IMG/VR virus record: IMGVR_UViG_2700988902_000001
Location: 11,520-75,519 of that record
DNA length: 64,000 bases
Strand: one strand, 5' to 3'
DNA from: Angelvirus px29
Lineage: Duplodnaviria > Heunggongvirae > Uroviricota > Caudoviricetes > Straboviridae
Part shown: positions 952-46,335 of the stretch, piece after piece
How positions within the stretch are numbered: the stretch's first letter is position 1
Layout: each line of letters begins with the position of its first letter
Notes under the pieces: generated by a model
What the model saw: the letters and a program-made list of their open reading frames with translations, nothing else
What the model was told of the DNA's origin: nothing
Databases searched by the model: none
Position numbers and translations under genes: made by a program

Positions 952-3714
952 TTACCAATCGCCAAAAAGATCGGTAAGACTTGTTTTCTTCTCTGTATCC
1001 CAGCCAATAGCCTCGCAGATATTTTCCAGTGGTTTCAGAAAATGCTTTCCATACATCCCAGTATAGTCCAGATACTTGTTCAAATCGAGTTCGAATTCAT
1101 CTGGGATCTTCTCACCACTCGGGAACGCCAAGACGGGAGAATGTAACTGGTTCGGTTCTTTCAGCATGATAATCTGAATCTTTTCACCACTTCGAATCAT
1201 ATCAACGCGCTTTTGTTCGGCAAACTTGTTATAAGCCAATGCGCCTTTGATGTGACCCGGACAACCTTTGACAGGAACCCAGTTGTTGTGGTTCTTATCA
1301 ATATTGTTCGCGCTCGATACGGATGCAATCTCTCGATAATCTTTCGTAGGATACGCTGCCTTAACTTCTGCAACGTGCTCCTGTAGAGCAGCTTCACCCT
1401 TAGTCAGGATTAGCTTGATACTCTTCTCAAGCGATTTACCAGCGAATACCGGTGTGCTTGAACGTTGAGTTTCGATACCCATGATCTTGAGCTTGGGAAC
1501 AACTTTACCGTGTTCGTCTAGCTTGCGTTTACCTTCTGAGTCCCACACGTTAGCAGCATAACGCTTTTTACCTGTGATAAAGAAAGTATCAGCGATGATC
1601 TCTCGATCCATGAACAACTGGTGATCATATGCGTTGGTATATTCTGCCAACTCACGATAGCTTTGATCGATATACGGCTCGCATTTCTCTTTAGCGAATT
1701 TCGACAAGAAATCAACCCATCGAATTTTCTCGATGCTATCAACTTCAATACCTTTTCGAGCTGCCATTTGACTTACGAAAGTTTCGAACGTCATATAAAT
1801 GGAGTCAGTATCGCCGTAAACAACATAATCAATCTGATTGGTATTACACACAGCATTCATATATTCGTTCATCTTACGCATAATCCAACGAATAGCGAGT
1901 TGACCGGATACAGTGATTGCCTCAGCGTTTCTTGTGTCAAAGTAACGGAAATGCTGATTACCCAATGCGCCATAAAGTGAGTTGATCAATACCTTACGTG
2001 CTTGTTGGTTTACGTTTTCAAGCTTCTCCATAAAGCGACACCAAGCAACAACTTCGCTAAGTGTGGCACTCGGTAGAGAATGCAGAACAGATTTAAAATC
2101 TTCAAACTCTTGACCTTTCATAGAAAGATTAATCGAATGAATATCAAATCGCTCGGTGCTGAAATTATTTTCGTCCAGCTTACCGTCTTGACGACCGACA
2201 ATAATATCGTATGCGATTGTTGCGATCTTATCCGCTGTGAATTCGGCATTCTTTGCTGCTTTACGCTGCAAGAACACTTTATCGATCTCGGTCGGGATAA
2301 TACCACGTTTAGCGCGAGTATAACGCATCCCATTTGCTGCAAAAGTCATATCGTCTTTCGGGATCTCATATGTCTTTGCAATCATACCGGTGCCAAATAC
2401 ATCTGGTACCATGCGATCTTTCACGAAAGTTCGCGGAACATCAACCTGTCCCATAATCGTCTCTGGACTAATGTTCAGCCATTTGATGATGTGTGGATAC
2501 AGTGATGTCAAGTCGAAACTCATAATCCATTTATAGAAACCGGGGAACGGTTCTTTAACAAATGCACCAGCGAATTTCTCTTTGGTCGAACGCTTGTTTT
2601 CTGGAACAACGATGCCTTGTACGATCAGACTATTGTGAATAATCGCGTCCCAAGTTTTCAGTGGACTAAACACGTTTTGATAGTTGACTTTTGCGTAATA
2701 CGCTACACTGGTAATCAGTGCCATCAACGACAAACGAGCGTCTAGTTTAACCAACAAGTCAACGTCTCGAATCAAATAGTCAATATATCGCTGTGGATTT
2801 TTCTGACTAAATGCGAGGTATGTCTTCTCGGTCATTTCCAACTTTCTCATACCCAGTTCAACTTGACCGATGTAATCCAAACGATATGTTGGACGAGTCT
2901 TGAAAGTGAACTTCTTATAAGCTGCCATGTAATCGATACAAGCAATGCCCATAAGTTCATAGGTGATGATTTCTTCGGCATCTTCGTCATCGTCATTGTG
3001 AGCTATGCGCTCAACAATTTGCTCCCAAGGACTAAGCTTGTTTGCATAGACTTCACCGAGAACCTTGCGATATCGATTTACAATATAGCGCAAGTCGAAC
3101 ATTTCGGAGTTCCACCCGGAGAATACATCTGGTGTATTATCGCGGAAGAATTTCAGATACTTGATTAAAAGCTCTCGCTCAGACGCACAGAACGTATATT
3201 CTACGTGTTCGAGTGTGTCAACGCTCTTACCACTATCGTCTTTATCGAGAATCGATTTGGCGATGTCCCACGGTCTTGTGGTGAACAAAAAGAATTTCTT
3301 GCGCTTGGTACTATAATGACAGATACCATCAATTTCCCAATCGCAAATATGAGGTTCTGGGAAAGGTCCATCAGTCGGGACCTCAATATCGACAAACGCG
3401 ATATCCAGTTGCTCATAGTTGAATGAAATCGGACCGCTATACGTGTGATACAGATATTGAAGAATAAAGTCATCCATACCAAGCGGTTCGCGATTGATAT
3501 CGCGCATTTCTTTCATCCAACGTCTTGCATCGCCAATGCTATCATGTTGAACAGCAACAGCAGCACGACCATAGATATCTTTTAGATCTCCGTTTGCGGA
3601 GTGCTTATACATAATCGGTTTAAACGGGACTTTGCGAGTTCGAGAAAGTCCAGAGTCATCGATAAATCGTTCTAAAACCTGATTGCCTTGAATACAAATA
3701 TTCGTGTAAAACAT
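952..3714 (-). CDS. 43: DNA polymerase, family B (T4 gp43)
   Basis: 920 aa with exonuclease motifs and the polymerase motif YGDTDS. C-terminal LTDLFGDW clamp-binding tail. Synteny with regA/62/44/45. Confidence 0.95.
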   Translation of the reverse strand: MFYTNICIQGNQVLERFIDDSGLSRTRKVPFKPIMYKHSANGDLKDIYGRAAVAVQHDSIGDARRWMKEMRDINREPLGMDDFILQYLYHTYSGPISFNYEQLDIAFVDIEVPTDGPFPEPHICDWEIDGICHYSTKRKKFFLFTTRPWDIAKSILDKDDSGKSVDTLEHVEYTFCASERELLIKYLKFFRDNTPDVFSGWNSEMFDLRYIVNRYRKVLGEVYANKLSPWEQIVERIAHNDDDEDAEEIITYELMGIACIDYMAAYKKFTFKTRPTYRLDYIGQVELGMRKLEMTEKTYLAFSQKNPQRYIDYLIRDVDLLVKLDARLSLMALITSVAYYAKVNYQNVFSPLKTWDAIIHNSLIVQGIVVPENKRSTKEKFAGAFVKEPFPGFYKWIMSFDLTSLYPHIIKWLNISPETIMGQVDVPRTFVKDRMVPDVFGTGMIAKTYEIPKDDMTFAANGMRYTRAKRGIIPTEIDKVFLQRKAAKNAEFTADKIATIAYDIIVGRQDGKLDENNFSTERFDIHSINLSMKGQEFEDFKSVLHSLPSATLSEVVAWCRFMEKLENVNQQARKVLINSLYGALGNQHFRYFDTRNAEAITVSGQLAIRWIMRKMNEYMNAVCNTNQIDYVVYGDTDSIYMTFETFVSQMAARKGIEVDSIEKIRWVDFLSKFAKEKCEPYIDQSYRELAEYTNAYDHQLFMDREIIADTFFITGKKRYAANVWDSEGKRKLDEHGKVVPKLKIMGIETQRSSTPVFAGKSLEKSIKLILTKGEAALQEHVAEVKAAYPTKDYREIASVSSANNIDKNHNNWVPVKGCPGHIKGALAYNKFAEQKRVDMIRSGEKIQIIMLKEPNQLHSPVLAFPSGEKIPDEFELDLNKYLDYTGMYGKHFLKPLENICEAIGWDTEKKTSLTDLFGDW

Positions 3715-5864: not shown

Positions 5865-6542
5865 TTAAGCGGTATATTTGGACTTGGCATCCAGCGAGAT
5901 AATGTAACTTGCGTTAGCACCTTCAAAGCAGATTGCACCTTCTTTAGCAATCATTACTTTGTATTTCGCATCGGTCATTTTCATGTTACCAAGTGCAACG
6001 ATGAAATCAAAGTTAGCGTCGTTACCTTCGTAATCGTCAGCAACCGGAATTTCAAAGGTATTGCTGTTAGCGTCGCCGCCAGTCAGTCGAGCCAGAATCT
6101 TGCGACCATCATTTACAAAGTGCAGATCAACCAGTGACATGGTAGAAGCAGATTTCATGATCTGTTTCAGTTGTTCTTCGGTCAGCTCAAACACAACGGA
6201 CGCGGTTGGGATGCTGATAGCTTTCTTCGGATGAATGATGGTACCAGCTTCTGCCATCTTGATCTTAGCCATAGACTTGCCACCGGCTGCATTCTTGATA
6301 GTGATGTATTCACCATCCTCAGTCACTTGAGCAGGCAGACCAATCATGTTGGCTACACCAATCAATTCACCAAGACTGTAGATTCGCAGTTCGCTATCAA
6401 TTTGATCTTTGATAGTAGCGGATGCATACAGAACGTTGTTGACGCTCTTGGTGTTGATAAAAGTACCCGGTTTCAGCACCACAGACGGATTGATTTTGGC
6501 GAAGTTAGACAGGATTTCTACAGTTTCTTTGCTCAGTTGCAT
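5865..6542 (-). CDS. 45: Sliding clamp (gp45)
   Basis: 225 aa, N-terminus MQLSKETVEILSNFAKINPSVVLKPG aligns with T4 gp45 MKLSKDTTALLKNFATINSGIMLKSG. The ..GNMKM.. block is also conserved. Confidence 0.9.
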   Translation of the reverse strand: MQLSKETVEILSNFAKINPSVVLKPGTFINTKSVNNVLYASATIKDQIDSELRIYSLGELIGVANMIGLPAQVTEDGEYITIKNAAGGKSMAKIKMAEAGTIIHPKKAISIPTASVVFELTEEQLKQIMKSASTMSLVDLHFVNDGRKILARLTGGDANSNTFEIPVADDYEGNDANFDFIVALGNMKMTDAKYKVMIAKEGAICFEGANASYIISLDAKSKYTA

Positions 6543-11214: not shown

Positions 11215-11459
11215 TTAAACTTGTAGTGTGATTCTTCGGTATCGAGCGAAATGATTTCGCCAATTAGTTTACCATGCTTGACGCTTATGACGTTAGAACG
11301 AATTGAAAGAGGATCAATAATCACCGGGATTCCAGATTCGAGTAATTTTATTTTGAGCATATAGGGGACTAATTCGGGTTCATCATTGCACTCATGATAA
11401 TTTTCCCAGAGTGGAATAGTTACTTCAATATTATTCGTCGGCATCATCGTCATCCTCAA
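11202..11459 (-). CDS. Hypothetical protein
   Basis: 85 aa, overlaps its neighbours by a few codons. Confidence 0.45.
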   Translation of the reverse strand: MRMTMMPTNNIEVTIPLWENYHECNDEPELVPYMLKIKLLESGIPVIIDPLSIRSNVISVKHGKLIGEIISLDTEESHYKFKWEM

Positions 11460-11955
11460 GGAATGACAATCCGCCTAGTTGCTTTGGCTTTTTAGCTTTC
11501 TGATTTTTCATTGTAGCTTCAAAGTCGTTTGCTTTGGTCATCATGTCATTATAGAAAGATAGGTCAACTAATTTTGCCATATCTTCATCTTCGGCATCAT
11601 GGACGTGTTCCAAAAAATACTTATACTTTGCAGCTTCTTCTTTCTTGGAATGTCTAATTCGAGCAATGAACGAGCGAGCACATATCATGGTAATATATGC
11701 GTGTGGATTCGTATATCGTTCGGTGTCAAAGTTCTTGCAGTATTTCAAGCAAGTTTCAACAGCATCACCAACCATCAGCTCTTTCCAAGTGTCGGTATAA
11801 CGACTAAATCGCCAATAATTCGTGAACCCATAAGCGATCTTCATGATTGAAGAACCAATGAACTCGGGCATTCGCTCACTGGGGTTTTCTTTCAACTTCT
11901 CTTTCCAAGCGACAAATGCTTGATAAAGTTCCTCGTTGTTAACGTAATCTGCCAT
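11431..11955 (-). CDS. 55: Late-transcription sigma factor (gp55)
   Basis: MADYVNNEELYQAF...KNFDTERYTNPHAYITMICARSF aligns with T4 gp55 (..YVNNKELLQAI...[23 protein letters not shown]). Acidic C-terminus with an LSFL clamp-binding-like motif. The track start at 12009 is probably an over-extension; the true ATG is ~11955. Confidence 0.85.
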   Translation of the reverse strand: MADYVNNEELYQAFVAWKEKLKENPSERMPEFIGSSIMKIAYGFTNYWRFSRYTDTWKELMVGDAVETCLKYCKNFDTERYTNPHAYITMICARSFIARIRHSKKEEAAKYKYFLEHVHDAEDEDMAKLVDLSFYNDMMTKANDFEATMKNQKAKKPKQLGGLSFLEDDDDADE

Positions 11956-17933: not shown

Positions 17934-18330
17934 TCAACCGAACAAAGAAAGTAGCTCGGTGTCTTCTTTTTTCAGATTGGCAACGATGTTAGCCAGCGCA
18001 GCATAGCGGATAGAACAACGACCTTTATTTACATCGATACCAGCTTCTTTCAGCGCAGACAACGGAATCGGACGAACGTTATCAAAAAAGATATCGTTGG
18101 TATTCAGTTCTTTGTCAGTCCAAGTGCCGGTGTAAACCTCGGTGATATCAGCGAAATAAGCTTTGTTCCCTTTGTCAACGATTGCGATGTGTTTTACCTT
18201 GTTGATGCGTTCGGCAGCACCGATAAAACCTTCGGCTTTCTTCTCTTTCAGCATACGCTCAAAGCTCAGACAGCCAGCAGTACCATCCATTTCGCGACTC
18301 GGGATTACAACGATAGTATCTTGTTTCATG
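17934..18330 (-). CDS. Hypothetical protein
   Basis: Probable true start MKQDTIVV (132 aa) with SD GAGGAAC. The track ORF is over-extended through the upstream promoter. Confidence 0.5.
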
Positions 18331-18355
18331 ATTTGTTCCTCAGCTTTGTTTCGAT

Positions 18356-18389
18356 AGAGCCATCTTATCATGATGGCTCTTTGTGTCAA
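18356..18389 (-). promoter_or_regulatory. Sigma70-like early promoter with the -10 region inside an inverted repeat
   Basis: Minus strand TTGACA-N16-TAAGAT. IR AGAGCCAT(c ttatcatg)ATGGCTCT brackets the -10. Confidence 0.55.
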
Positions 18390-24546: not shown

Positions 24547-25452
24547 TTAGAAGTCACCGAACAGATCGGTCAACCCTTTATCTCGATTGAATTCGTCAAG
24601 AGTTTTTAGCCATTTCATCGTCTCGTTTTCTTCGAGATCTTTTATCTCGGCGTCGAAGTCAAGAGATTTTGATTTAGCTTTCGCTAGATTAGCATAGTTA
24701 TCTTCGCCTCTCCACTTGAACATCAGATAAGCTCTCGCGTACATTCTCGGCGGATAAGTGAATTCTCGATAGTCTATGCCTTTGCTATACTCGGGATAAG
24801 GCAATTTTTCTTTCTTGCACTTTACCTTTCTGTCTAGCCAATAAATGTAGCGATAAGTTTTGACATCAAACCACTTGCATTTATCATCGAGAAGCATTCT
24901 CCAACGTTCGAGCATAGAACCCGGTCGTTTTGTGTTCTCGAACGGAACATGATGAAACACTTCTCCGGTTTCGGTGTTCTCGGCAAATAGAGTTTGATCG
25001 AAACCGTAGTAATCGAAATTCGATGCTTTGTAGATTGTACCACAACCAAGTCTACCATCAGCAAAGCTTTGAATTGCTTTGATATGAGGATAACACTTGC
25101 GAATGATTTTAAATGACGCACCGAGCATAGTGGTTTCGCCATTATGCCCGATACTATCATCAATCCACAATCGATTCAACTCGATTATGTTATTTGATTC
25201 AAGTTCATCTGAAATTGATTTGTAAGAACCCGGGTTCATCAGATTCCCAAACACAGCAACCCCAAGAAGAACATCATCACGAAACACGCCAATGTTCACT
25301 ATTCCAAACGAGGTATTCCACTTTTTCGAGTAATGATTTTTCTCAATCATTTCTCTTGCAACGTCTCGGTCTACTTCCATGAATGTCAACAGACCGTTAT
25401 TTTTTGTTTGTTTGTGTATAACGTATTTCATTACTCTCCTTATGCTTCCCAC
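24547..25452 (-). CDS. Hypothetical protein with sliding-clamp-binding C-terminal tail; possible acyltransferase-like (Mom/GNAT-like) fold
   Basis: 301 aa. The C-terminal nonapeptide GLTDLFGDF is almost identical to the gp43 C-terminus SLTDLFGDW. N-terminal ..EKNHYSKKW..GV..VFGN.. and ..SFADGRLGCGTIYKASNFDYYG.. are reminiscent of acyltransferase-fold families. The fold assignment is tentative. Confidence 0.55.
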   Translation of the reverse strand: MGSIRRVMKYVIHKQTKNNGLLTFMEVDRDVAREMIEKNHYSKKWNTSFGIVNIGVFRDDVLLGVAVFGNLMNPGSYKSISDELESNNIIELNRLWIDDSIGHNGETTMLGASFKIIRKCYPHIKAIQSFADGRLGCGTIYKASNFDYYGFDQTLFAENTETGEVFHHVPFENTKRPGSMLERWRMLLDDKCKWFDVKTYRYIYWLDRKVKCKKEKLPYPEYSKGIDYREFTYPPRMYARAYLMFKWRGEDNYANLAKAKSKSLDFDAEIKDLEENETMKWLKTLDEFNRDKGLTDLFGDF

Positions 25453-37977: not shown

Positions 37978-38108
37978 TTTATTAGTCCATTAGTGAGTAA
38001 GTAAAAAGCTACACCGAATCCAATAATGGCACCGCGAGTTATATTGTTGCCAACTATTAACAAAAACACAGCCGCAGATAGCAACAAATTGGATTCGATA
38101 AACATCAG
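37977..38108 (-). CDS. Tiny membrane peptide (unannotated, ~43 aa)
   Basis: Hand translation gives MFIESNLLLSAAVFLLIVGNNITRGAIIGFGVAFYLLTNGLIK. Its stop overlaps the ATG of the next gene (AAAATGA). Confidence 0.35.
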
Positions 38109-38389
38109 ATTACCCCGAGTTCGATCAGTTCATAGTCATCGGCAGTCTTACGCTTGATATCATAATCAGTCAGAGACGGATCATCAATGCCAGAGTTAAA
38201 CCACTTAGTAACTTGATTGTGATGAATCACGTTTTCGAAGATACCACGATCTGATGAAATAAACGGGACAGAACACATGAAATCGAAATCAGCGGTCACC
38301 GAATTGCAGAACTCAGCATTTTCGTTTGCGGTAGTTGAGATACCAAGCCACAGATCTTTCTTCTCTTTATGACGCATTGCATAGAACAT
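38105..38389 (-). CDS. Hypothetical protein
   Basis: 94 aa. Confidence 0.45.
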   Translation of the reverse strand: MFYAMRHKEKKDLWLGISTTANENAEFCNSVTADFDFMCSVPFISSDRGIFENVIHHNQVTKWFNSGIDDPSLTDYDIKRKTADDYELIELGVI

Positions 38390-38446
38390 GATATATTCCT
38401 CTTGATAAGATAGGTCCTATTCTACATGAACAGGACCTGATGTCAA

Positions 38447-38776
38447 CTAGATTAAGCCAAGAATTTTCTTTTCTTCGTCACTCAGTTTAGCAAGTGCCGC
38501 GGCTTTCTTCTCGTTGTTGATTTTTGTTTCGTAATCTTCGCGTTTGCGAATAACGGTAATGCGATTTTTAACTAGGAAGCTGAATTCTTCGCCGTCGATA
38601 TCAAAAGTCATTACATCTTTTGCACCAGAGTAGCAAGCACCATTACCACCATACCAACCTTTACCCTTAGACAATTCCAGCCCCAGAGATTCGTTGGTTG
38701 AGTAACAGAACACACCGGATTGACGCTCGTCGGTAGCAACCGAGATTTCATAAACTTTTTCGCGTTTCAGATTCAT
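38447..38776 (-). CDS. Hypothetical protein
   Basis: 109 aa. Confidence 0.45.
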   Translation of the reverse strand: MNLKREKVYEISVATDERQSGVFCYSTNESLGLELSKGKGWYGGNGACYSGAKDVMTFDIDGEEFSFLVKNRITVIRKREDYETKINNEKKAAALAKLSDEEKKILGLI

Positions 38777-38970
38777 TACAGATACTCCGTTGAAGAACTG
38801 ATTTCTTTACCGTTCAGAGTGATCGACACTTTCAAAGTGACATCATTATAATAACCATGACGACGGTTAATATTGATGCTCAGATGTTGTTCCAGATATT
38901 CCTGAATTTTCTCTTCAAACCAGCCATTGTCATGACGGCAGCGTTCTTTGTCTTTATCGCTCATTACCAT
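38776..38970 (-). CDS. Hypothetical protein, tandem paralog a
   Basis: 64 aa. Shares I(Q/K)xYL(E/K)..L..(I/V)..(8-10)..(I/V)SSS(T/S)EY with the next ORF. Confidence 0.4.
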   Translation of the reverse strand: MVMSDKDKERCRHDNGWFEEKIQEYLEQHLSININRRHGYYNDVTLKVSITLNGKEISSSTEYL

Positions 38971-39197
38971 TCATCCTTTTGATTGATCATGTCACAAATG
39001 TATTCGGAACTGCTTGAAATCGTTTCGTCTCCGATGTTTATATCAACGCGGATTCGACCGCATTGTGTATAAAGCGATACATTCAGATTTTCTTTCAGAT
39101 AAGCTTTTATCTGTTCGTTGAGATTAAGTTTACTGGATTCTGCCTCGGTGTCAACATCTTTTTTCAGATCCGACCCATGTTCTTGTGTTCCTGACAT
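38964..39197 (-). CDS. Hypothetical protein, tandem paralog b
   Basis: 77 aa paralog of the previous ORF. Confidence 0.4.
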   Translation of the reverse strand: MSGTQEHGSDLKKDVDTEAESSKLNLNEQIKAYLKENLNVSLYTQCGRIRVDINIGDETISSSSEYICDMINQKDEW

Positions 39198-39652
39198 TGC
39201 GTAGTCCTATAACCATCAAATACACTTCTGGCACGATAATAGTCCTTGACTGTAAAGCCATTAGCACTATCAACGTGAATGAAATTTTCTTTTTGTGATT
39301 CCAACATATCGTCATCATCGTCAATGATAACATACTTTTTACAATCGAGGTGTTTGTCTAACCATTCTTTGATTAGCTCTCCGCGATGTTCACCAACGAG
39401 ATCCCGAGTCTTGAAATCTTCATGCAGACATCCGGGAGGAAATCCAGCTAGTGCTAGATGATCTCTCACCATCTGAACATCACAGCCAAGTCTCCAAGTG
39501 CTACTGTATACCACTTTCAAATTGTAGTCAACGATAAGTTTTGATAGGAGCTTTACAGCCCCTATATCTACCATTTGTCCATATTTCAGATAGCTAGAAT
39601 CAGAATGATAAACGCCATCAACATCGAGAAACAATACTCTCAGTTCTTTCAT
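39164..39652 (-). CDS. HAD-superfamily phosphatase (nucleotidase/polynucleotide phosphatase-like)
   Basis: 162 aa. Motif I FLDVDGV and motif IV VIIDDDDD. Confidence 0.7.
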   Translation of the reverse strand: MKELRVLFLDVDGVYHSDSSYLKYGQMVDIGAVKLLSKLIVDYNLKVVYSSTWRLGCDVQMVRDHLALAGFPPGCLHEDFKTRDLVGEHRGELIKEWLDKHLDCKKYVIIDDDDDMLESQKENFIHVDSANGFTVKDYYRARSVFDGYRTTQCQEHKNMGRI

Positions 39653-40896
39653 ATGTCAAGCGTCCACATTGTATCTTTCAGCCAAGACGGATATTCTCTA
39701 CCTTCGCTGGTATCAGTTTCGTCTAGTGTGTTGCAATAAGCAATACAAAATTCTAACTGCGAACGTTGTTCTTCGCCGAGTAACGCAACCAAACGCTCTA
39801 TGGCAGCGTTTCTATTGTCCAGCATATACTCGCAAGCGTAGATACGAGAAACGATTCTGGTAGCACCCTGACCAGCGTTGAGCATACGCTTTACAATACC
39901 TTCGAGTATGTTACCGTCACCGCACGATGGCTCAAAGAAAGTCGAACCTGAATTCAGATCATCGATGTCCGTATAATCTAACATCTGATTAACGATTTCA
40001 ATCGGAGTAAAGAATTCTGCCGTTTTCTTTTGACGTTCTCGCTCGATTGTGCTAGTGAAGTTTCTGGTTTCATCAACAACTTTCGTTTTGTGTCTGATAC
40101 CAGAATAGTAATCTTCGATTACTTCCGGCACTTTATGTCTGATATGAGTTAATTCAAATTTCTCAAATAGTTCATCATCAGTCCAGCGTCTGGTCATATC
40201 TAACCATGGTATCGCATTCAGTTCTCCGCTGTCAAGATGAATGTTCATCTTATACAAAGAAAGCATGAATCTAGCGAAATCTGTTTTCAGATAAGCAACA
40301 AAGTTCTCTGCCTCTTCTAACGTTTTGAATGCAAAGTTTTGACCACGCTTAGGCATTTCAGTTGTCGGAACGTAGTCGGTCGGAAACATGGTAAAGAAAT
40401 CAGAATTAAAGCGTTTGCCAGCTTCTGGTGGGTGTCCTCTAACACTCGCTATAGTGACGTAATGACTTGCGCCAATAACCTCACCGGAGCATTCCATATG
40501 CGCTACGCTAGGATATTTCATCTTGTCATAGACATCAGAACACCAATCGCCAAGCATATTGATTTTGTCTAAAGGCAATTTAGCAGTGTAATATCCAGAG
40601 ACATCGATTAGATCTGATTTCTTTGTGGTATCAATAACAGTTATACTAAGCGGAGTCAGAAACCCAGCTTTGAAAACGGCGTTACCGTCGAACAAATGAA
40701 TACTCGTTTTGTGCGCTTTCATGTTGCCAAGAAGTTCAGCAACGCGCTTTGTTTGTCGGGTCGGCTTTCTGTTTACAAAGGGGCCAGACGGATGCACAGC
40801 GATTGTGACATCACATTTCTTTACCCCTAAGTTAACAAAGTCAACGTGCAAACCCGCACTATATGGCGGGTTTGCGATCATATAATCAAAGCGCAT
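39649..40896 (-). CDS. DNA N6-adenine methyltransferase, beta-class
   Basis: 415 aa. Motif IV NPPY at residues 9-12, motif I EPSCGDGNIL ~300 aa downstream. Confidence 0.8.
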   Translation of the reverse strand: MRFDYMIANPPYSAGLHVDFVNLGVKKCDVTIAVHPSGPFVNRKPTRQTKRVAELLGNMKAHKTSIHLFDGNAVFKAGFLTPLSITVIDTTKKSDLIDVSGYYTAKLPLDKINMLGDWCSDVYDKMKYPSVAHMECSGEVIGASHYVTIASVRGHPPEAGKRFNSDFFTMFPTDYVPTTEMPKRGQNFAFKTLEEAENFVAYLKTDFARFMLSLYKMNIHLDSGELNAIPWLDMTRRWTDDELFEKFELTHIRHKVPEVIEDYYSGIRHKTKVVDETRNFTSTIERERQKKTAEFFTPIEIVNQMLDYTDIDDLNSGSTFFEPSCGDGNILEGIVKRMLNAGQGATRIVSRIYACEYMLDNRNAAIERLVALLGEEQRSQLEFCIAYCNTLDETDTSEGREYPSWLKDTMWTLDI

Positions 40897-41581
40897 GAGT
40901 GCTCAATCGCTCGCTGTATTCGCGCTCCATGCCGAACTCTTTCGCAATCTTCATAATAGCGATGTTCATTTTTACCAGCTTATCACGTTCGACGATATAA
41001 TCATTCATCATTACATCGAGTTCGAGTGCATGACGTCGCTTGATTTCAGCTTCAATTTGTTTGATTTGAAGTTTCAAAATGTCGGTAGAAACTTCTTTGA
41101 TGTCCTTTTCCACTTTAGCGATGATCTCCGGTTTCGGTTGCTTAGGAGCTTTTTGTAGCAAATCGATTTTGCGTTCGGGTATACGAACGTTCATTTTGAA
41201 TCCATAATCGGTGCGCTTTGCCGCGAAAGGAGAAAATGCTTTCATTCGAATGAAAATCTCGTCAATGATAGACTGACTACCACGACTGAATTCAAACTCA
41301 ACGATGTTAACAATTATGCCTTCGCCGAGTTTCGTTACATTAACACCCATCAACTCCGGGAACTGACCGTCTTCAATATACGCGCCAAACAGTTCGCTTA
41401 GATGCGCTTTGTTGAACGGACGACTACCAATCATCGATTCTGTATAGCGTCTGATGTTTTTGCGGAACTTCGCTGGGTCGATATCGACTTTAGTTCCAGC
41501 TGGCTTGGTATGAGTTTCACACGCAATATTCAGGAATTTGTACCACTGATTACGCGCAACCAACTTTCGTTTTTCGTTCAT
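40886..41581 (-). CDS. Hypothetical protein
   Basis: 231 aa, coiled-coil C-terminus. Confidence 0.5.
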   Translation of the reverse strand: MNEKRKLVARNQWYKFLNIACETHTKPAGTKVDIDPAKFRKNIRRYTESMIGSRPFNKAHLSELFGAYIEDGQFPELMGVNVTKLGEGIIVNIVEFEFSRGSQSIIDEIFIRMKAFSPFAAKRTDYGFKMNVRIPERKIDLLQKAPKQPKPEIIAKVEKDIKEVSTDILKLQIKQIEAEIKRRHALELDVMMNDYIVERDKLVKMNIAIMKIAKEFGMEREYSERLSTHAL

Positions 41582-41620
41582 AATTTCTCCAATGAGAGGG
41601 CTTTTAACCCTCTCACTATA

Positions 41621-42799
41621 TTAGATACCAAACATAAAATCAAGCCCAGATTTAGCATTTTCTTTATCGTGTGCTTCGATTGCTTTCTTATACGCTTCGA
41701 GTTCAGACGGAACACCAATAAACTCATGAGAATAGCTAACGCGATCTTTCACAAACTTGGGATCGACCGAGTGTTTCATCATTTTGTTTGGTGTAACTGG
41801 TGTTCTATTGCTGGACGTCGCTTTCCACTTGATAGAACGTTCGTGGTACTCTCCGAGCTTAGGGTTAGTGGTACGAGTATAGAATCTCTTACCTCTCGCC
41901 AGAAGCTGGTAGGCGACGGCCTCGGTCATCTTCGGACCAATCCCCATTCCCTGAAAGTCTGGAAGCACAACAAGACGATGTGCAATCCACGCATCTTTGA
42001 CTGTGCCAGATGGCAACGGGAGAATACTAACGAATCCAACCGGTACATCACCCCATTTCATCAAGTAACAATGGCTTGCCACGTTGATTTCGCGAGAGAG
42101 GTAGTGATGGTCGGCAAACCCAAGATCTGAGTAGGCTTTTGCTGATACAGGTGTGATGTCGAGCGCAATCGCTGGAAACCGCCTTTCTGACCCCCGAATA
42201 ATTAGTTGCTCATTCGATACGTCAAACACCCAATCCGGTTGCAGCCACTCGATGATATCATAGTGACAAGACGCAAACACAAGACCTTTGATGCCAGTAC
42301 GATCAACGTATTTTCTAATACTCTTTGAGCAAGAAATAGCAACGTTACGGTCAACAACCGATGTAAACTCGTCAATAACGGTATTATCAACCAGACTACG
42401 GGCCAAGTTAGCGCGGAACTGTTGACCATTAGAAAGAGAATGAAACGGTTTTGCCCAGTGTGGGACAGAGTTGAAACCAACGGCACCAAGTCGTTCTTGC
42501 GCATCTTCAACACTATCAAAGTGTGAAGCAATCGCTTTGTTGTGTTCCCACTTTACTTCTTTTTCGATACCGAAATTACGAAGAATGGTTGACTTACCAC
42601 TACCACTTGGACCAACAATCAAACCAATGCCGTATTCTTTCGGTACTTCATGTGGCATCAGATTCTTGATCTTGGTAGTGGTAGTTCCATCAAACTCAAA
42701 ATCCATTTGCTTGGTTACTTCAACGACAATAGCGTCGAGTTCAACTTTGGTTTCGCGAGTGATATATCCACTTTCGTCGGTAAATTGTTCGAGACTCAT
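41621..42799 (-). CDS. ABC-type ATPase fused to a GNAT N-acyltransferase domain; clamp-binding-like C-terminal tail
   Basis: 392 aa. Walker A GPSGSGKST, ABC signature LSNGQQ, Walker B VIDEFTSVVD, H-loop CH. C-terminal GNAT motif A ..LPDFQGMGIGPKM... Extreme C-terminus SGLDFMFGI resembles the T4 gp45-binding motif (LDFLF/Y). Confidence 0.75.
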   Translation of the reverse strand: MSLEQFTDESGYITRETKVELDAIVVEVTKQMDFEFDGTTTTKIKNLMPHEVPKEYGIGLIVGPSGSGKSTILRNFGIEKEVKWEHNKAIASHFDSVEDAQERLGAVGFNSVPHWAKPFHSLSNGQQFRANLARSLVDNTVIDEFTSVVDRNVAISCSKSIRKYVDRTGIKGLVFASCHYDIIEWLQPDWVFDVSNEQLIIRGSERRFPAIALDITPVSAKAYSDLGFADHHYLSREINVASHCYLMKWGDVPVGFVSILPLPSGTVKDAWIAHRLVVLPDFQGMGIGPKMTEAVAYQLLARGKRFYTRTTNPKLGEYHERSIKWKATSSNRTPVTPNKMMKHSVDPKFVKDRVSYSHEFIGVPSELEAYKKAIEAHDKENAKSGLDFMFGI

Positions 42800-42860
42800 T
42801 AAATTCCTCCAATAAAAAGCGCGTGACTGTAATTTACCACAATGTCACGCGCTTGTAAAC

Positions 42861-43652
42861 TTAGAATGTCAGAAGATTTGAACGAGCTTTGTTGATTTCT
42901 TCGATGATTGCTTGTTCTTCTTTTGCCATTTCGACTCGCTCTTTACGAAGACGCTCAATTTCAGCGTCGTGCAGTCGCATCTTCTCATTCAGCAAACGAA
43001 TACGGTCAAACTTCTCACCGTGATTCAGTTCGATGAAACGATTCACGCTTACCAGATACTGACGCTTGATTTCATTCTCACTGACCGGCGGCAGAGAAGA
43101 AGTGATGGTCGGTTCATCCAGTTGTACTACTTCCACAGTTTCTTCCTTTTTGTATGGTTTCACCAGATCGGCAGCAACCAATTCTTTGTTTTCTTGTTTA
43201 AGATACGGCATCATTTTCAGCGGTTTCAGTGTTTTCAGATCCGGAGACATAAAGATGTGAGCATCCAGTTGAATAACACCGTTCACAATCTTGGCATACC
43301 CCAACTTAACCATGTTGGAGTTTTCCATATGATTCACGTATTTGGAACGAATGACCATACGAATACAGTGAAACGATGCAAACTGATTGATAGCGCGAAC
43401 AACAGACGCAGTATCCCACACCACAGCTTCATCACCAAATGCACGATAGAACTTACGTTTCATGTTGAGATTGGTTTCAAGACGATCAGCTTTCTTTACG
43501 TGTTCGGCGGTATAATCGTTATACACGCGAATGGTTTGACCTTTTACGGTAACATTCTTGAAAAAGATGTGATTCAGAATCGCACGACAAGCGTTATGAT
43601 TCTTGATTGATTCTTTCATCTTATTCCGATTTGATTTTACTTGACTGCTCAT
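42861..43652 (-). CDS. Hypothetical protein
   Basis: 263 aa, C-terminal coiled coil. Confidence 0.5.
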   Translation of the reverse strand: MSSQVKSNRNKMKESIKNHNACRAILNHIFFKNVTVKGQTIRVYNDYTAEHVKKADRLETNLNMKRKFYRAFGDEAVVWDTASVVRAINQFASFHCIRMVIRSKYVNHMENSNMVKLGYAKIVNGVIQLDAHIFMSPDLKTLKPLKMMPYLKQENKELVAADLVKPYKKEETVEVVQLDEPTITSSLPPVSENEIKRQYLVSVNRFIELNHGEKFDRIRLLNEKMRLHDAEIERLRKERVEMAKEEQAIIEEINKARSNLLTF

Positions 43653-44530
43653 TACGCTTCCTTAAAGCTGTATTTGTCGAGAATTTGAGTCATGATAGTG
43701 ATTTTCGGTTGCAAAGTCAACATCACCTCATGATATTCTGCATATGCTTGTTGTTGTTCTGCAACAGCCTGATCAAGCTGTGCTTGTGCTTGTGCCAACA
43801 GTTGCTTGAACTGTTTCACATTGACACTCTTAGATTCAACAACGCGCTCCAGTTCTTGAAGTTGAGCGAAACCAGGCAGAACTTTTTCGAAATCGATATT
43901 AAAAACATCTTGACTTTGAACTTCTTTCTTGCTCATTTCTTCCAGAGTTCGGACGTTCTCGGTTCTGGTGTTTTTATAGCAGATATCAAAGCCTATTGAA
44001 TTTTTATCCGTGCGAACATCAAACAGTTTGTTTTCACCAAACACAGGAACAGTGATAACAACACGACTCTTATATTGTGTTGGGTCACAGTGCCAGACAC
44101 GCATACCGGTTTCGCCGTCTTTGAATCCCCAGTTCTCCATAGAGAAGTGTTTGCCGAGATTTGAATTAAGCAGCTTCTCAGGAACTTGTGATTTGAAATA
44201 CAATGCGATTTGCGTAGGAGAAATCACACGATATTGCCAAATGCTCGTTTGAAGACTAGGCCAAATCGGGCGCAATTTTTCGTATTGGTCATATTCCGCA
44301 TTGACGTTGTTATACAACGATTTGCTAAAGAAACTATCGGTACCAAACATTGCCACGAATGCGGATGCAATGCGAACCAGATTGGTACTGGAAAACATAT
44401 TACCGTCAAACGCACGGGTCTGAGTCTTACCGTCGATAGTCACGTTTTCACAGAACAGGATCTGATTCATACGAACAACGAAGTTTTTGAATTTCTTGTC
44501 CTTGAATACCTGCTTACGTTCTTTTTTCAT
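43652..44530 (-). CDS. Hypothetical protein
   Basis: 292 aa. Confidence 0.5.
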   Translation of the reverse strand: MKKERKQVFKDKKFKNFVVRMNQILFCENVTIDGKTQTRAFDGNMFSSTNLVRIASAFVAMFGTDSFFSKSLYNNVNAEYDQYEKLRPIWPSLQTSIWQYRVISPTQIALYFKSQVPEKLLNSNLGKHFSMENWGFKDGETGMRVWHCDPTQYKSRVVITVPVFGENKLFDVRTDKNSIGFDICYKNTRTENVRTLEEMSKKEVQSQDVFNIDFEKVLPGFAQLQELERVVESKSVNVKQFKQLLAQAQAQLDQAVAEQQQAYAEYHEVMLTLQPKITIMTQILDKYSFKEA

Positions 44531-44532
44531 TA

Positions 44533-44757
44533 TTAAGCCTCCGCTTTGATATAATCAACGATGTCGTCAAAGTTAGCAGATTCCACGCCAACACCAGATT
44601 CATCATTGACACTAAACACCGTGCCGTAATCTTCATCTTCGCGTTGTGCTACAGTAAAAACTCGACCGTTCTTCATGTGGACATTCATTTCATTTTGATT
44701 GTCCAGATCCAGATTGATGTATTTCACGGTTTCGATAGCGGAGATTTGAGCCAACAT
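44533..44757 (-). CDS. Hypothetical protein
   Basis: 74 aa. Confidence 0.45.
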   Translation of the reverse strand: MLAQISAIETVKYINLDLDNQNEMNVHMKNGRVFTVAQREDEDYGTVFSVNDESGVGVESANFDDIVDYIKAEA

Positions 44758-44787
44758 GATGTATTCCTCTTTTGTTTTGATGTAGCT

Positions 44788-44815
44788 ATCTTAACAGATC
44801 AGTATTCTACGTCAA
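44788..44815 (-). promoter_or_regulatory. Sigma70-like early promoter
   Basis: AAAGTCC-TTGACG-N16-TAAGAT-AGCTACATCAAAAC..GAGGAATACATC-ATG. Confidence 0.55.
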
Positions 44816-45332
44816 GGACTTTTCTCGCATAATCCACGTTTTTTACACATTGAATTAGCTCACCAAGTTTTTCTTTCTTGATAGTCAACGTGGTAAAATC
44901 ACCGTCGCTATTCATATCAAAAATCACGTTCTCTTTTGACGTTCTAACACCAAGTCTTGAATCATTGATTTTCATTCGACCGACTTGAATGTCTTTAGAT
45001 TTGAACACGGATTCGGTTACGATAGAATTCGATCTCTCGATAAACCTAACAAACTTGTCGTGGTCCGCTCGTTTCGGCAACTGAAACAAAACCTTTTTAT
45101 TAAAGTTCTCAGTTACCTCCATCACAGTAGTATGATCTTTGATATAAAATGAAATAGTGTAAAACTGATTGACACCAACACCAGAACAAGCAACCGCTTC
45201 CTTATTGTTGGCAATCAACTGATTATAGAAATCCGACTGATCTACAATAGCGGCGTTTGCAGAACAAACCACAAACGCCATTGCTATCTTAGTTGCCAGA
45301 TTCTTCACATTCTTCGGGAAGAACGGAATCAT
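44799..45332 (-). CDS. Secreted protein (signal peptide)
   Basis: Signal peptide ..KNLATKIAMAFVVCSANA|AIV. Start taken as MIPFF; the track ORF is longer. Confidence 0.5.
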   Translation of the reverse strand: MIPFFPKNVKNLATKIAMAFVVCSANAAIVDQSDFYNQLIANNKEAVACSGVGVNQFYTISFYIKDHTTVMEVTENFNKKVLFQLPKRADHDKFVRFIERSNSIVTESVFKSKDIQVGRMKINDSRLGVRTSKENVIFDMNSDGDFTTLTIKKEKLGELIQCVKNVDYARKVLDVEY

Positions 45333-45612
45333 CACACAGCACCTCTTCTTCGTTAGTACCATTATCGACTTGTTGATCGTTACCATTCTGCATAGCATTC
45401 ATAAGCATCATGGTAGTTACCACGTTTGCGGCAGTGTTGGTATGAACTGCGGCATTGCTCACTGTAGTAGCAGGGCGAACCGGTGCGCTAACTGAGACTG
45501 GACGCGATACGGTCATCGGGCGGCTGATAGTCATTGGACGACTCATGCTAATAGCAGCGTTAGCAGAACCGATCATAGAAAACAGAGCGATAGCCAGAAT
45601 TGATTTTTTCAT
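45289..45612 (-). CDS. Secreted acidic protein with (S/T)RP(M/V) repeats
   Basis: Start MKKSILAIALFSMIGSANA|AI. Repeats MSRPMTISRPMTVSRPVSVSAPVRP. Acidic Cys-containing C-terminus. Confidence 0.5.
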   Translation of the reverse strand: MKKSILAIALFSMIGSANAAISMSRPMTISRPMTVSRPVSVSAPVRPATTVSNAAVHTNTAANVVTTMMLMNAMQNGNDQQVDNGTNEEEVLCDDSVLPEECEESGN

Positions 45613-45726
45613 TTGTACCTCAAACAGAATAGGCATAATGCCATGATAAGTATTGTTGTCAGTGTTTCCACTTTCTTAACCCTCTTGTAAAAGTTTTAAG
45701 AAAGTGGGGAACAAGTCCCCGACTTT

Positions 45727-45960
45727 TTAATCTACTTTTCTGATTACAACGTGAAACCCGTTGTTTTTCAGTTTTGTTTCAAGACGACAAGCTTTCTTAA
45801 AATCTTCAATCGTTGTTGTTGCGTTAAAACCGATTACATCACCAGCTTTAGAGCGAACAGCTACAGCTTTCATCACAGTATCAACCAACAGAATTTCGTT
45901 GTTGTTGGTGATGGAGATATAACGCTCGGTCGGTACAACTACAGTGAAAACATATTTCAT
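45727..45960 (-). CDS. Hypothetical protein
   Basis: 77 aa. Confidence 0.45.
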   Translation of the reverse strand: MKYVFTVVVPTERYISITNNNEILLVDTVMKAVAVRSKAGDVIGFNATTTIEDFKKACRLETKLKNNGFHVVIRKVD

Positions 45961-46005
45961 GATAAGCTCCTCTCAGAAAGTAGAGCTATCTTACACTCGC
46001 ACGAA

Positions 46006-46335
46006 TCAGATGTCAAACATTTTCATCAAAGAAGATTTTTCTTTTTTCTCGACGTTTGTGGCAATAATCTCATGATCGCTTTTCGTCTTTGAACCACCGG
46101 TATATGTAACCGCAAAATCAACAATGCGATCAATTCCAAACGTTTCATCAAACAGTTGATGTTTTTTGTTGCAGAAAATGACCTTATGTTTATTCATAAG
46201 ATTCAAAGCATAACGCGATGATTCTTCTTGCAACTTATAGCCAAACGAGTTTCTATCGTCATATCTGGTAAAGCTATTGATGTATGGCGGGTCCATAAAC
46301 ACCAACGAGTTTACGGGAAACCCGGTACTGCTCAT
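46006..46335 (-). CDS. Hypothetical protein
   Basis: 109 aa. Confidence 0.45.
   Translation of the reverse strand: MSSTGFPVNSLVFMDPPYINSFTRYDDRNSFGYKLQEESSRYALNLMNKHKVIFCNKKHQLFDETFGIDRIVDFAVTYTGGSKTKSDHEIIATNVEKKEKSSLMKMFDI

Follow-up and report, generated by a model that had tools for sequence, protein, structure and literature searches.

A predicted clamp-tethered DNA base modifier, gp085, on an exchanged cassette of Aeromonas phage PX29

The gene gp085 of Aeromonas phage PX29 (NC_023688.1; Straboviridae, Angelvirus) encodes a protein in which an ABC ATPase is fused to a GNAT domain. It lies within the 64,000-nucleotide stretch of the PX29 genome that we analysed (the window; record position equals window position plus 11,519), next to gp084, gp083 and gp082. 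Our favored reading, which we hold at a probability of about 0.6, is that gp085 is an exchanged cassette, predicted to acylate bases of double-stranded phage DNA while tethered to the sliding clamp, and that gp082-gp084 are not steps of this reaction. An earlier analysis made from the letters alone (the sequence-only reading) had joined the four genes into one replication-coupled modification pathway and had assumed a vibriophage; the phage infects Aeromonas. The four open reading frames (ORFs) that it delimited are real, matching the annotated genes gp082-gp085, all 'hypothetical' and on the minus strand, at 100% identity and at the same coordinates.

The ABC-ATPase-GNAT protein and its locus

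41621..42799, minus strand: gp085, ABC-ATPase-GNAT fusion, 392 amino acids (aa), Pfam ABC_tran and Acetyltransf_1
42200..42652, minus strand: compact ABC ATPase domain of gp085, aa ~50-200
42587-42613, minus strand: Walker A of the ABC domain, GPSGSGKST
42419-42436, minus strand: ABC signature, LSNGQQ
42365-42379, minus strand: Walker B of the ABC domain, VIDEF
42257-42271, minus strand: H-loop of the ABC domain, SCHYD
41714..42187, minus strand: GNAT domain of gp085, aa ~205-362 (Pfam Acetyltransf_1, 1.3e-8)
42098-42109, minus strand: HHYL, family-specific motif of the GNAT domain
41936-41956, minus strand: acyl-CoA motif FQGMGIG of the GNAT domain (Q/R-x-x-G-x-G/A cofactor type)
41714-41734, minus strand: YSHEFIG, end of the family core (family motif HE(Y/F)IG)

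gp085 matches phrog_11143, the phage ABC-ATPase-GNAT family, over aa 12-367 (E=2.5e-142) and is a full-length member, with all ABC and GNAT motifs and the C-terminal HE(Y/F)IG. Each of the motifs picked out by the sequence-only reading coincides with invariant positions in an alignment of 50 family sequences, the invariant residues being G63, S65, G66, G68, K69, S123, G125, D143, E144 and H179 in the ABC domain and H231, H232, Y233, L234, R275, Q283, G284, G286, G288, H358 and E359 in the GNAT domain. The fusion had been called an unusual architecture; a protein search returned more than 7,296 homologs (~50% identity over ~355 residues), showing that the family is common. Cultured phages carrying members include T4-like Aeromonas and Vibrio phages, the Tenacibaculum jumbo phage pT24, Streptococcus pyogenes prophages, Lactococcus P335, Gordonia and Arthrobacter phages, the Mu-like Burkholderia phage phiE255, and Leptospira and Porphyromonas phages. 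Against NCBIfam, gp085 matched ABC transporter models below threshold only. Membership in a MADS system was rejected: PADLOC produced a weak mad3 match for gp085 (6.5e-9, confined to the P-loop region) and a weak mad2 match for the neighboring methyltransferase, representing generic ATPase and generic methyltransferase similarity, respectively.

Acylation of a DNA base had already been predicted for the ABC-ATPase-GNAT family (Iyer, Zhang, Burroughs & Aravind 2013, NAR, as relayed by PMC7824862 and PMC8056088). PX29p085 itself is listed in a 2021 paper as a presumed DNA modifier yielding an unknown base. That gp085 is a predicted DNA-modification enzyme of a known family is, to this extent, prior knowledge. 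New here are two cases of locus replacement, and associations with formyltransferase and with PanD/CoA-transferase genes. The published prediction, the two replacements and the gene neighborhoods support the sequence-only view of gp085 as a putative DNA-modifying enzyme.

The first replacement is seen against phage Aeh1. The two genomes are 77-78% identical at window 38006-41601 and 42853-45985 and unrelated between. The slot between the gp086 and gp084 homologs holds gp085 in PX29 (window 41602-42852) and, in Aeh1, a TET-associated DNA glycosyltransferase (Pfam TAGT, PF20691, 3.6e-44) together with a 66-aa ORF. The two cassettes exclude one another: neither TAGT nor the small ORF has a homolog in PX29, and Aeh1 lacks an ABC-GNAT gene. 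The Aeh1 arrangement is also found in Ah1, phiAS5 and the metagenomic loci L024 and L025 (methyltransferases 47-52% identical to gp083). Two elements mark the edges of the PX29 cassette:

42800..42860, minus strand: upstream cassette boundary, T4-early-like promoter GTTTACA ...17 nt... TAAATT
41582..41620, minus strand: downstream cassette boundary, hairpin GAGAGGG-TTAAAAG-CCCTCTC, then the ribosome-binding site (RBS) of gp084

At the upstream boundary the promoter overlaps the inverted repeat AGCGCGTGAC/GTCACGCGCT, followed by a T-run and the RBS GGAGG, and PX29/Aeh1 homology ends at the GTTTACA box, window 42853. Homology restarts in the 3' arm of the downstream hairpin, CCCTCTCAT.GGAGAAATTATG. 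The Aeh1 counterparts of these elements lie at L020 8832-8893 and 7403-7431. The promoter/terminator scan of the region was mostly noise, and only these two boundary elements were kept, after reading the sequence. Shuffling modules of T4-type phages called PeSL (promoter-early stem-loop) were reportedly described by Arbiol et al. in 2010, and we take the PX29 boundaries (promoter plus stem-loop, hairpin) to resemble them. The data point to gp085 as a self-contained, horizontally exchanged cassette.

The second, independent replacement involves phages of Porphyromonas gingivalis. Within flanks of 90% identity, phage 011a carries an ABC-GNAT gene with a formyltransferase (L035 2745-4681, 1.9 kb) and phage 012a a Mom-family enzyme (L036 2921-3733, 0.8 kb). 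Both cassettes occupy the right end of the genome beyond the tail genes, where phage Mu has mom. At these fixed loci ABC-GNAT trades places with DNA base-modifying enzymes of two different classes, TAGT and Mom, and we consider the two replacements the strongest contextual evidence here pointing to DNA as the ABC-GNAT substrate.

In small phages the neighbors of ABC-GNAT are DNA-related, comprising ParB_N, ASCH, HNH/terminase, formyltransferase, and PanD with a CoA-transferase. A ParB_N gene lies upstream of ABC-GNAT, or of a split ABC and GNAT pair, in Streptococcus 315.4, Lactococcus P335 and Gordonia Jace (by Pfam or annotation), and in AnClar it is linked to ABC-GNAT across the genome end; in 315.4 an ASCH protein is encoded 3' of ABC-GNAT. 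ParB homologs activate phage DNA thymine dioxygenases (PMC13229309). No ParB_N partner was found in PX29, where gp084, gp086 and gp087 have no Pfam match, nor beside the marine and KVP40-like ABC-GNAT homologs. Formyl_trans_N is encoded directly 3' of ABC-GNAT in three independent cases, phiE255 gp30 (L010 6029-6643), AnClar gp3 (L011 2312-2962) and Porphyromonas 011a (L035 4131-4604), and in Jace an aspartate decarboxylase (PanD) and a family III CoA-transferase follow it (gp87-88, L033 3598-4709). These associations suggest that some ABC-GNAT systems make or elaborate their own non-acetyl donor or group, for example a beta-alanyl(-CoA) or a formylated one.

The C-terminal tail of gp085 and the sliding clamp

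41624..41713, minus strand: lineage-specific C-terminal extension of gp085, 30 residues past the core; helix at aa 364-384, then a disordered tail
41624-41650, minus strand: tail SGLDFMFGI of gp085, putative gp45 clamp-binding epitope
952..3714, minus strand: gp43 DNA polymerase, the within-phage reference for the clamp-binding motif
955-981, minus strand: PX29 gp43 clamp-binding epitope, SLTDLFGDW
5865..6542, minus strand: gp45 sliding clamp (by annotation), proposed docking partner
24547..25431, minus strand: gp046, Mom-family GNAT DNA-modification enzyme with a C-terminal extension (Pfam Mom 4.6e-57)
24550-24576, minus strand: gp046 tail GLTDLFGDF (C-terminus DKGLTDLFGDF)

The family core ends in R-x-C-Y-S-H-E-(Y/F)-I-G, and gp085 continues beyond it on a divergent linker to the peptide ...NAKSGLDFMFGI. 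In the AlphaFold2 (AF2) model, the local confidence score pLDDT is <50 at aa 389-392. For comparison, T4 gp43 ends EKASLDFLFG and T4 gp55 ends SPSLDFLYEAND, with SLDFLYEAND, and the C-terminus of PX29 gp43 reads KKTSLTDLFGDW. The gp085 tail shows the features of a clamp epitope: it is short, hydrophobic and acidic, and stands at the extreme C-terminus behind a divergent linker of variable length. In T4, the C-terminal epitopes of gp43, gp55 and gp33 are interchangeable clamp ligands on divergent linkers, and gp45 serves as a 'toolbelt' for them (PMC2988020).

The tails of gp085, PX29 gp43 and the Mom-like gp046 have L-x-x-[LM]-F-G in common. We scanned all stop-to-stop ORFs of the 222-kb genome for L..[LM]FG within three residues of the C-terminus and compared the count with 300 shuffling trials. 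The pattern was found in 4 of 2,296 ORFs against 0.16 expected, with a maximum of 2 in any shuffle; the gp085 tail is thus a rare ending that chance would hardly give. The four matches are gp43, gp046, gp085 and gp036; all are annotated and leftward-transcribed, and they fall in the replication/nucleotide-metabolism and hyperplastic part of the genome. gp036 (window 17934-18371, 145 aa; phrog_23814, no Pfam match) ends ELLSLFG and lies between nrdD and nrdB. A second C-terminal motif, LLGI/ILGLI, seen in some neighbors in L024 and L025 and in PX29 gp079, was discarded, as it is not enriched in PX29 (7 versus 4.9 expected).

Among the best 120 homologs, 114 of the 119 other than gp085 lack such a tail, and five of the closest relatives carry extensions past the core:

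P0002: PTLDFLF
P0003: SSLDFLFG
P0004: FTLDFLL
P0006: PNLNFLF
P0017: ATLDDFF

The linkers of PX29 and of these five proteins are 8-22 aa long and cannot be aligned, and the five extensions appear to have been acquired independently. In each of the five loci, ABC-GNAT is the sole ORF with such a tail. Marine and small-phage homologs have none. The sequence-only reading had described the tail of gp085 as clamp-binding-like, and this description gains from its match to T4 gp43, its rarity in the genome and its recurrence on separate linkers. We regard the identification of the predicted sliding-clamp-binding motif as strongly supported. PX29 gp33 (record 195806-196036) ends TSTLEQFF and gp55 (window 11431-11955) ends GGLSFLEDDDDADE; both tails differ noticeably from that of gp43, which suggests that a rather loose consensus, L-x-x-(L/F)-(F/L), suffices for the PX29 clamp.

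The same kind of tail is found on other modification genes. gp046 matches Pfam Mom over aa 15-213 and is 34.5% identical to phage Mu Mom (E=2e-23), and its tail is nearly identical to that of PX29 gp43. The sequence-only reading had paired gp085 with this protein (given there as 24547-25452) as a second clamp-recruited acyltransferase, a pairing now strengthened in that the partner is a true Mom homolog with a near-copy of the polymerase tail. Aeh1 has no Mom homolog at the gp046 position. In the phages with the TAGT cassette, a 61-66-aa protein (phrog_22103) is encoded directly 3' of the TAGT gene, the coding regions abutting or overlapping:

L020 7432-7632: Aeh1p092, 66 aa, ending GLASLFDI
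L028 6916-7116: Ah1 protein, ending GLASLFDI (as in Aeh1, ...HPGLASLFDI)
L026 3074-3274: phiAS5 protein, ending GLASIFEI
L024 5085-5273: metagenomic protein, ending GLSDIFDI
L025 4754-4939: metagenomic protein, ending GLSDLFDI

Aeh1 gp43 ends ASLSDLFGDM, which the tail of the Aeh1 66-aa protein resembles. The small protein may be a clamp adaptor for the TAGT glycosyltransferase, which itself has no such tail.

In the metagenomic contig L018 (2902-11119), where ABC-GNAT clusters with DnaB, Tet_JBP, a family-1 glycosyltransferase and TAGT, five modification genes share the ending L(E/D/S)(E/D)F(F/M):

Tet_JBP: GLEEFFG
Glycos_transf_1: DLSDFF
TAGT: ASLDEFF
methyltransferase-like protein, 418 aa: GLEEFME
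ABC-GNAT: ATLDDFF

No other called gene of this 21-kb locus has the motif, the one further match being an uncalled 50-aa antisense ORF. PX29 gp092 (window 46006-46296, 96 aa), apparently the C-terminal portion of a Dam-like methylase, starts with MDPPY (Dam motif IV) and carries the clamp-like ending SSLMKMFDI; its matches are to two DNA-methyltransferase families, phrog_56 and phrog_1996. The ORF upstream of it, gp093, has no Pfam match. The clamp-type tail that had been spotted on gp085 is thus newly seen to recur on Mom, TET/JBP, glycosyltransferases or their putative adaptor, and a Dam fragment.

A clamp-tethered gp085 might instead acylate something other than DNA, either a protein at the clamp (RNA polymerase, gp33/gp55, the replisome or a host protein) or RNA. 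phiKMV Rac, which acetylates the alpha subunit of RNA polymerase, is a model for a protein substrate, and TmcA/NAT10 are ATP-dependent RNA acetyltransferases, TmcA acting on tRNA. The T4-type clamp also activates late transcription through gp33 and gp55 (PMC2988020), and jumbo-phage GNATs have been proposed to modify RNA polymerase (PMC7824862). Against this stand the exchange of ABC-GNAT with a DNA glycosyltransferase at one locus and with Mom at another, the tail that the ABC-GNAT of L018 has in common with the DNA-acting TET/JBP, TAGT and glycosyltransferases, and the pairing of ABC-GNAT in clamp-less phages with ParB_N, ASCH and terminase-proximal genes. We consider a non-DNA substrate unlikely, although it is the most serious of the competing explanations.

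Several observations weigh against base acylation by a clamp-tethered gp085. In our literature search we found no biochemical or genetic study of any ABC-ATPase-GNAT member, and nothing on modification of PX29 DNA or its sensitivity to restriction. Fold searches brought up only generic transporter-type ABC nucleotide-binding domains and generic protein or small-molecule GNATs, and nothing nucleic-acid-specific. PX29 gp085 lacks two nearly invariant family cysteines (C218V, C355S); their joint loss suggests a structural pair (disulfide or metal site) with no catalytic role. The gp085 tail is nearer to the T4 gp43 tail than to that of PX29 gp43, and its compatibility with PX29 gp45 is therefore an assumption. 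Finally, an interaction of T4 alpha-glucosyltransferase with gp45, claimed in 2004, was not reproduced in a 2025 preprint using C-terminally tagged proteins, so that clamp coupling of phage DNA modification has no established precedent; our literature search found no paper on clamp-binding tails of phage DNA-modification enzymes.

The last two points also favor the explanation that the gp085 tail is not a gp45 ligand, being either a chance likeness or a dock for another shared partner or scaffold; the tail differs from that of PX29 gp43 at several positions, and gp45 binding is deduced from sequence. We think this decidedly improbable in view of the genome-wide count, in which gp43 is itself one of the matches, the near identity of the Mom-like and gp43 tails and of the P0003 tail to that of T4 gp43, the repeated independent gain that the divergent linkers point to, and the absence of tails from marine and small-phage homologs. 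The known epitopes, moreover, are likewise short, C-terminal, hydrophobic-acidic and interchangeable.

The neighboring genes gp082-gp084

40886..41581, minus strand: gp084, lineage-restricted orphan, 231 aa, no Pfam match
39649..40896, minus strand: gp083, circularly permuted (beta-topology) predicted N6-adenine DNA methyltransferase, 415 aa (motif order, 7vru alignment)
40861-40872, minus strand: NPPY (motif IV) of gp083, aa 9-12
40003-40017, minus strand: EFFTP (motif X) of gp083, aa 294-298
39910-39933, minus strand: EPSCGDGN (motif I) of gp083, aa 322-329
39164..39652, minus strand: gp082, small HAD-superfamily phosphatase, 162 aa (Pfam HAD_SAK_2 1.7e-22)

The individual assignments made for these genes from the letters alone were largely sound. 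The call of a beta-class N6-adenine methyltransferase is borne out by the motif order IV...X-I of gp083 and by its alignment with the adenine methyltransferase 7vru, in which query 287-343 corresponds to chain 163-217 and query 3-14 to chain 270-281; because the aligned segments swap order, gp083 is a clean circular permutation with beta-class order. Homologs in Klebsiella phage KpV477 (L022 2005-3938) and Shigella phage PSD9 (L023 2823-4788) are split into two or three ORFs, with the catalytic/target recognition domain (TRD) part first and the S-adenosylmethionine (AdoMet)-binding part second. Their place is the interval from primase gene 61 to dCTPase/soc, which we take to be where T4 has dam. 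gp083 most likely methylates DNA adenine on its own.

The phosphatase call for gp082 is likewise confirmed, HAD_SAK_2 covering 138 of 139 profile positions with the motifs LDVDGV, SSTW and DDDDD intact. In Ah1 the HAD gene is divided in two (gp075 and gp076, L028 4468-4958), apparently as a split gene or pseudogene: one ORF of 38 aa holds the N-terminal part with DVDG, and another of 96 aa the C-terminal part. The adjoining methyltransferase and glycosyltransferase genes are intact. In L024 the HAD slot holds a P-loop kinase-like ORF, and in L025 the HAD gene is absent. By these comparisons, gp082 is best described as an independent, generic small HAD phosphatase with no demonstrated tie to DNA modification. 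gp084, described earlier as a 231-aa unknown, stays outside any Pfam family, and a structure search found no relatives; its chain runs from an alpha/beta domain at the N-terminus through a disordered basic linker to a long helix at the C-terminus. It overlaps the start of the methyltransferase gene and always lies between that gene and the modification cassette, which suggests a tie to one or the other; we view it as an orphan traveling with the methylase.

The sequence-only reading went further and made the four genes one replication-coupled pathway, in which the ATPase activates the acyl group, the GNAT domain transfers it, the HAD protein dephosphorylates, and the methyltransferase and gp084 take part. 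Its appeal lies in the arrangement: gp082-gp084 overlap or abut (4 nt between the HAD and methyltransferase genes, 11 nt between the methyltransferase start and the gp084 stop), they are kept together in PX29, Aeh1 and phiAS5, and within this phage group a recognized DNA-modification gene always lies immediately 5' of gp084 and the methyltransferase. The description 'co-directional, tightly packed' therefore holds for the overlaps of gp082-gp084; gp085, on the other hand, is set off by spacers of 39 nt and 61 nt that contain the hairpins and its own promoter-like site. Co-directionality itself is uninformative, because the whole early region is tightly packed on the same strand: every annotated gene in about the first 108 kb of the record, including the whole window, is on one strand.

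Comparison across phages speaks against a single pathway. ABC-GNAT genes of marine T4-like phages, of KVP40-like phages (the closest, with the gene beside tk) and of small temperate phages have no methyltransferase, HAD or gp084 neighbor, and in phage 65 the methyltransferase stands alone, so that the four genes do not co-occur across divergent genomes. The slot upstream of gp084 swaps chemically unrelated enzymes, a glycosyltransferase and an ABC-GNAT protein. The HAD gene is split, substituted or absent as described above, and its family is found in 310 phage records from many genera, versus 48 for the methyltransferase and 63 for ABC-GNAT. The linkage of ABC-GNAT to the methyltransferase and HAD genes is limited to the PX29/AsFcp clade and arose via cassette replacement. 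As to the chemistry, ABC ATPases turn nucleotide binding into conformational work, and to our knowledge none activates acyl groups, which leaves the activating step assigned to the ATPase without support. The four-gene pathway is, in our judgment, largely refuted by comparative genomics, and we give it very little credence.

Proposed mechanism, related systems and significance

Returning to gp085 as a clamp-tethered base modifier, we propose that it probably acts at the replication fork. The gp45 clamp left on newly replicated DNA would recruit gp085 through its tail. ATP binding and hydrolysis by the ABC domain, probably with head-to-head dimerization as is familiar from the ABC family, would drive DNA engagement or access to the base, and the GNAT domain would acylate or aminoacylate an exocyclic amine, drawing on an activated donor. 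The Q-x-x-G-x-G motif favors acyl-CoA as donor; a charged tRNA is also possible, given Mom. The modified DNA would withstand host nucleases. gp085 and the Mom homolog gp046 would then belong to a group of DNA-modification enzymes that are each tethered to the clamp and act separately.

A broader proposal is that a portable C-terminal clamp peptide couples hypermodification to the fork generally in T4-like and other large phages, on Mom, ABC-GNAT, TET/JBP, Dam-like methylases and glycosyltransferases (directly or via the 66-aa adaptor), with gp085 performing ATP-dependent N-acyl base modification in PX29. We advance this tentatively, at somewhat less than even odds.

Within its own family, gp085 differs from most members in that PX29 and a few close relatives add the extension (~30 aa in PX29) with the clamp-type motif, and PX29 has none of the ParB_N, ASCH, formyltransferase or PanD partners. 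The TAGT cassette of Aeh1, Ah1 and phiAS5 occupies the identical slot, likewise encodes a putative modifier of DNA bases and comes with a clamp-type tail, but its chemistry is glycosylation and the tail is on the separate 61-66-aa protein rather than fused. The epitopes of T4 gp43, gp55 and gp33 have in common with the PX29 motif a short hydrophobic-acidic extreme C-terminus behind a divergent flexible linker, a likeness drawn from the letters; in PX29 the motif sits on predicted DNA-modification enzymes, in T4 on the polymerase and transcription factors.

TmcA/NAT10, which makes N4-acetylcytidine in RNA, also combines an NTPase with a GNAT domain that acylates an exocyclic nucleobase amine, and offers an analogy for ATP-driven substrate delivery. 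Its ATPase is helicase-type, however, its substrate is RNA, and homology is limited to the GNAT fold. In the eukaryotic pairing of DNMT1 with PCNA, which couples DNA methylation to replication, a DNA modifier is also brought to nascent DNA by a short clamp-binding peptide (the PIP-box); the proteins are unrelated and the motif is another, and the outcome there is maintenance methylation, whereas a protective modification is proposed for PX29. Phage Mu Mom resembles gp085 in its GNAT-superfamily catalytic domain and in the proposed post-replicative action on an exocyclic DNA amine, but gp085 has no detectable sequence relationship to it, matches Acetyltransf_1/7 with an acyl-CoA-type Q-x-x-G-x-G, and has an obligatory ABC ATPase where Mom has none. 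Mom was long assumed to use acyl-CoA; it uses Gly-tRNA(Gly) and glycylates N6-A of double-stranded DNA post-replicatively (PMC13219725).

Homologs of ABC-GNAT number more than 7,000 and range from marine T4-like phages to prophages of Streptococcus; it is among the largest of the uncharacterized families predicted to modify phage DNA. PX29 is a cultured phage, and sister phages such as Aeh1, with a glycosyltransferase in the same slot, form a natural control, so that the PX29 modification could be identified directly by comparative nucleoside mass spectrometry. The tails are also relevant to a current dispute about a physical link between the replisome and phage DNA modification, for which PX29 offers cleaner test cases because the tail of its Mom homolog nearly copies the clamp-binding peptide of the polymerase. 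If the reading is true, C-terminal clamp motifs would serve as an inexpensive marker by which new DNA-modifying enzymes could be spotted in phage sequences, and as a portable tag that directs enzymes to nascent DNA.

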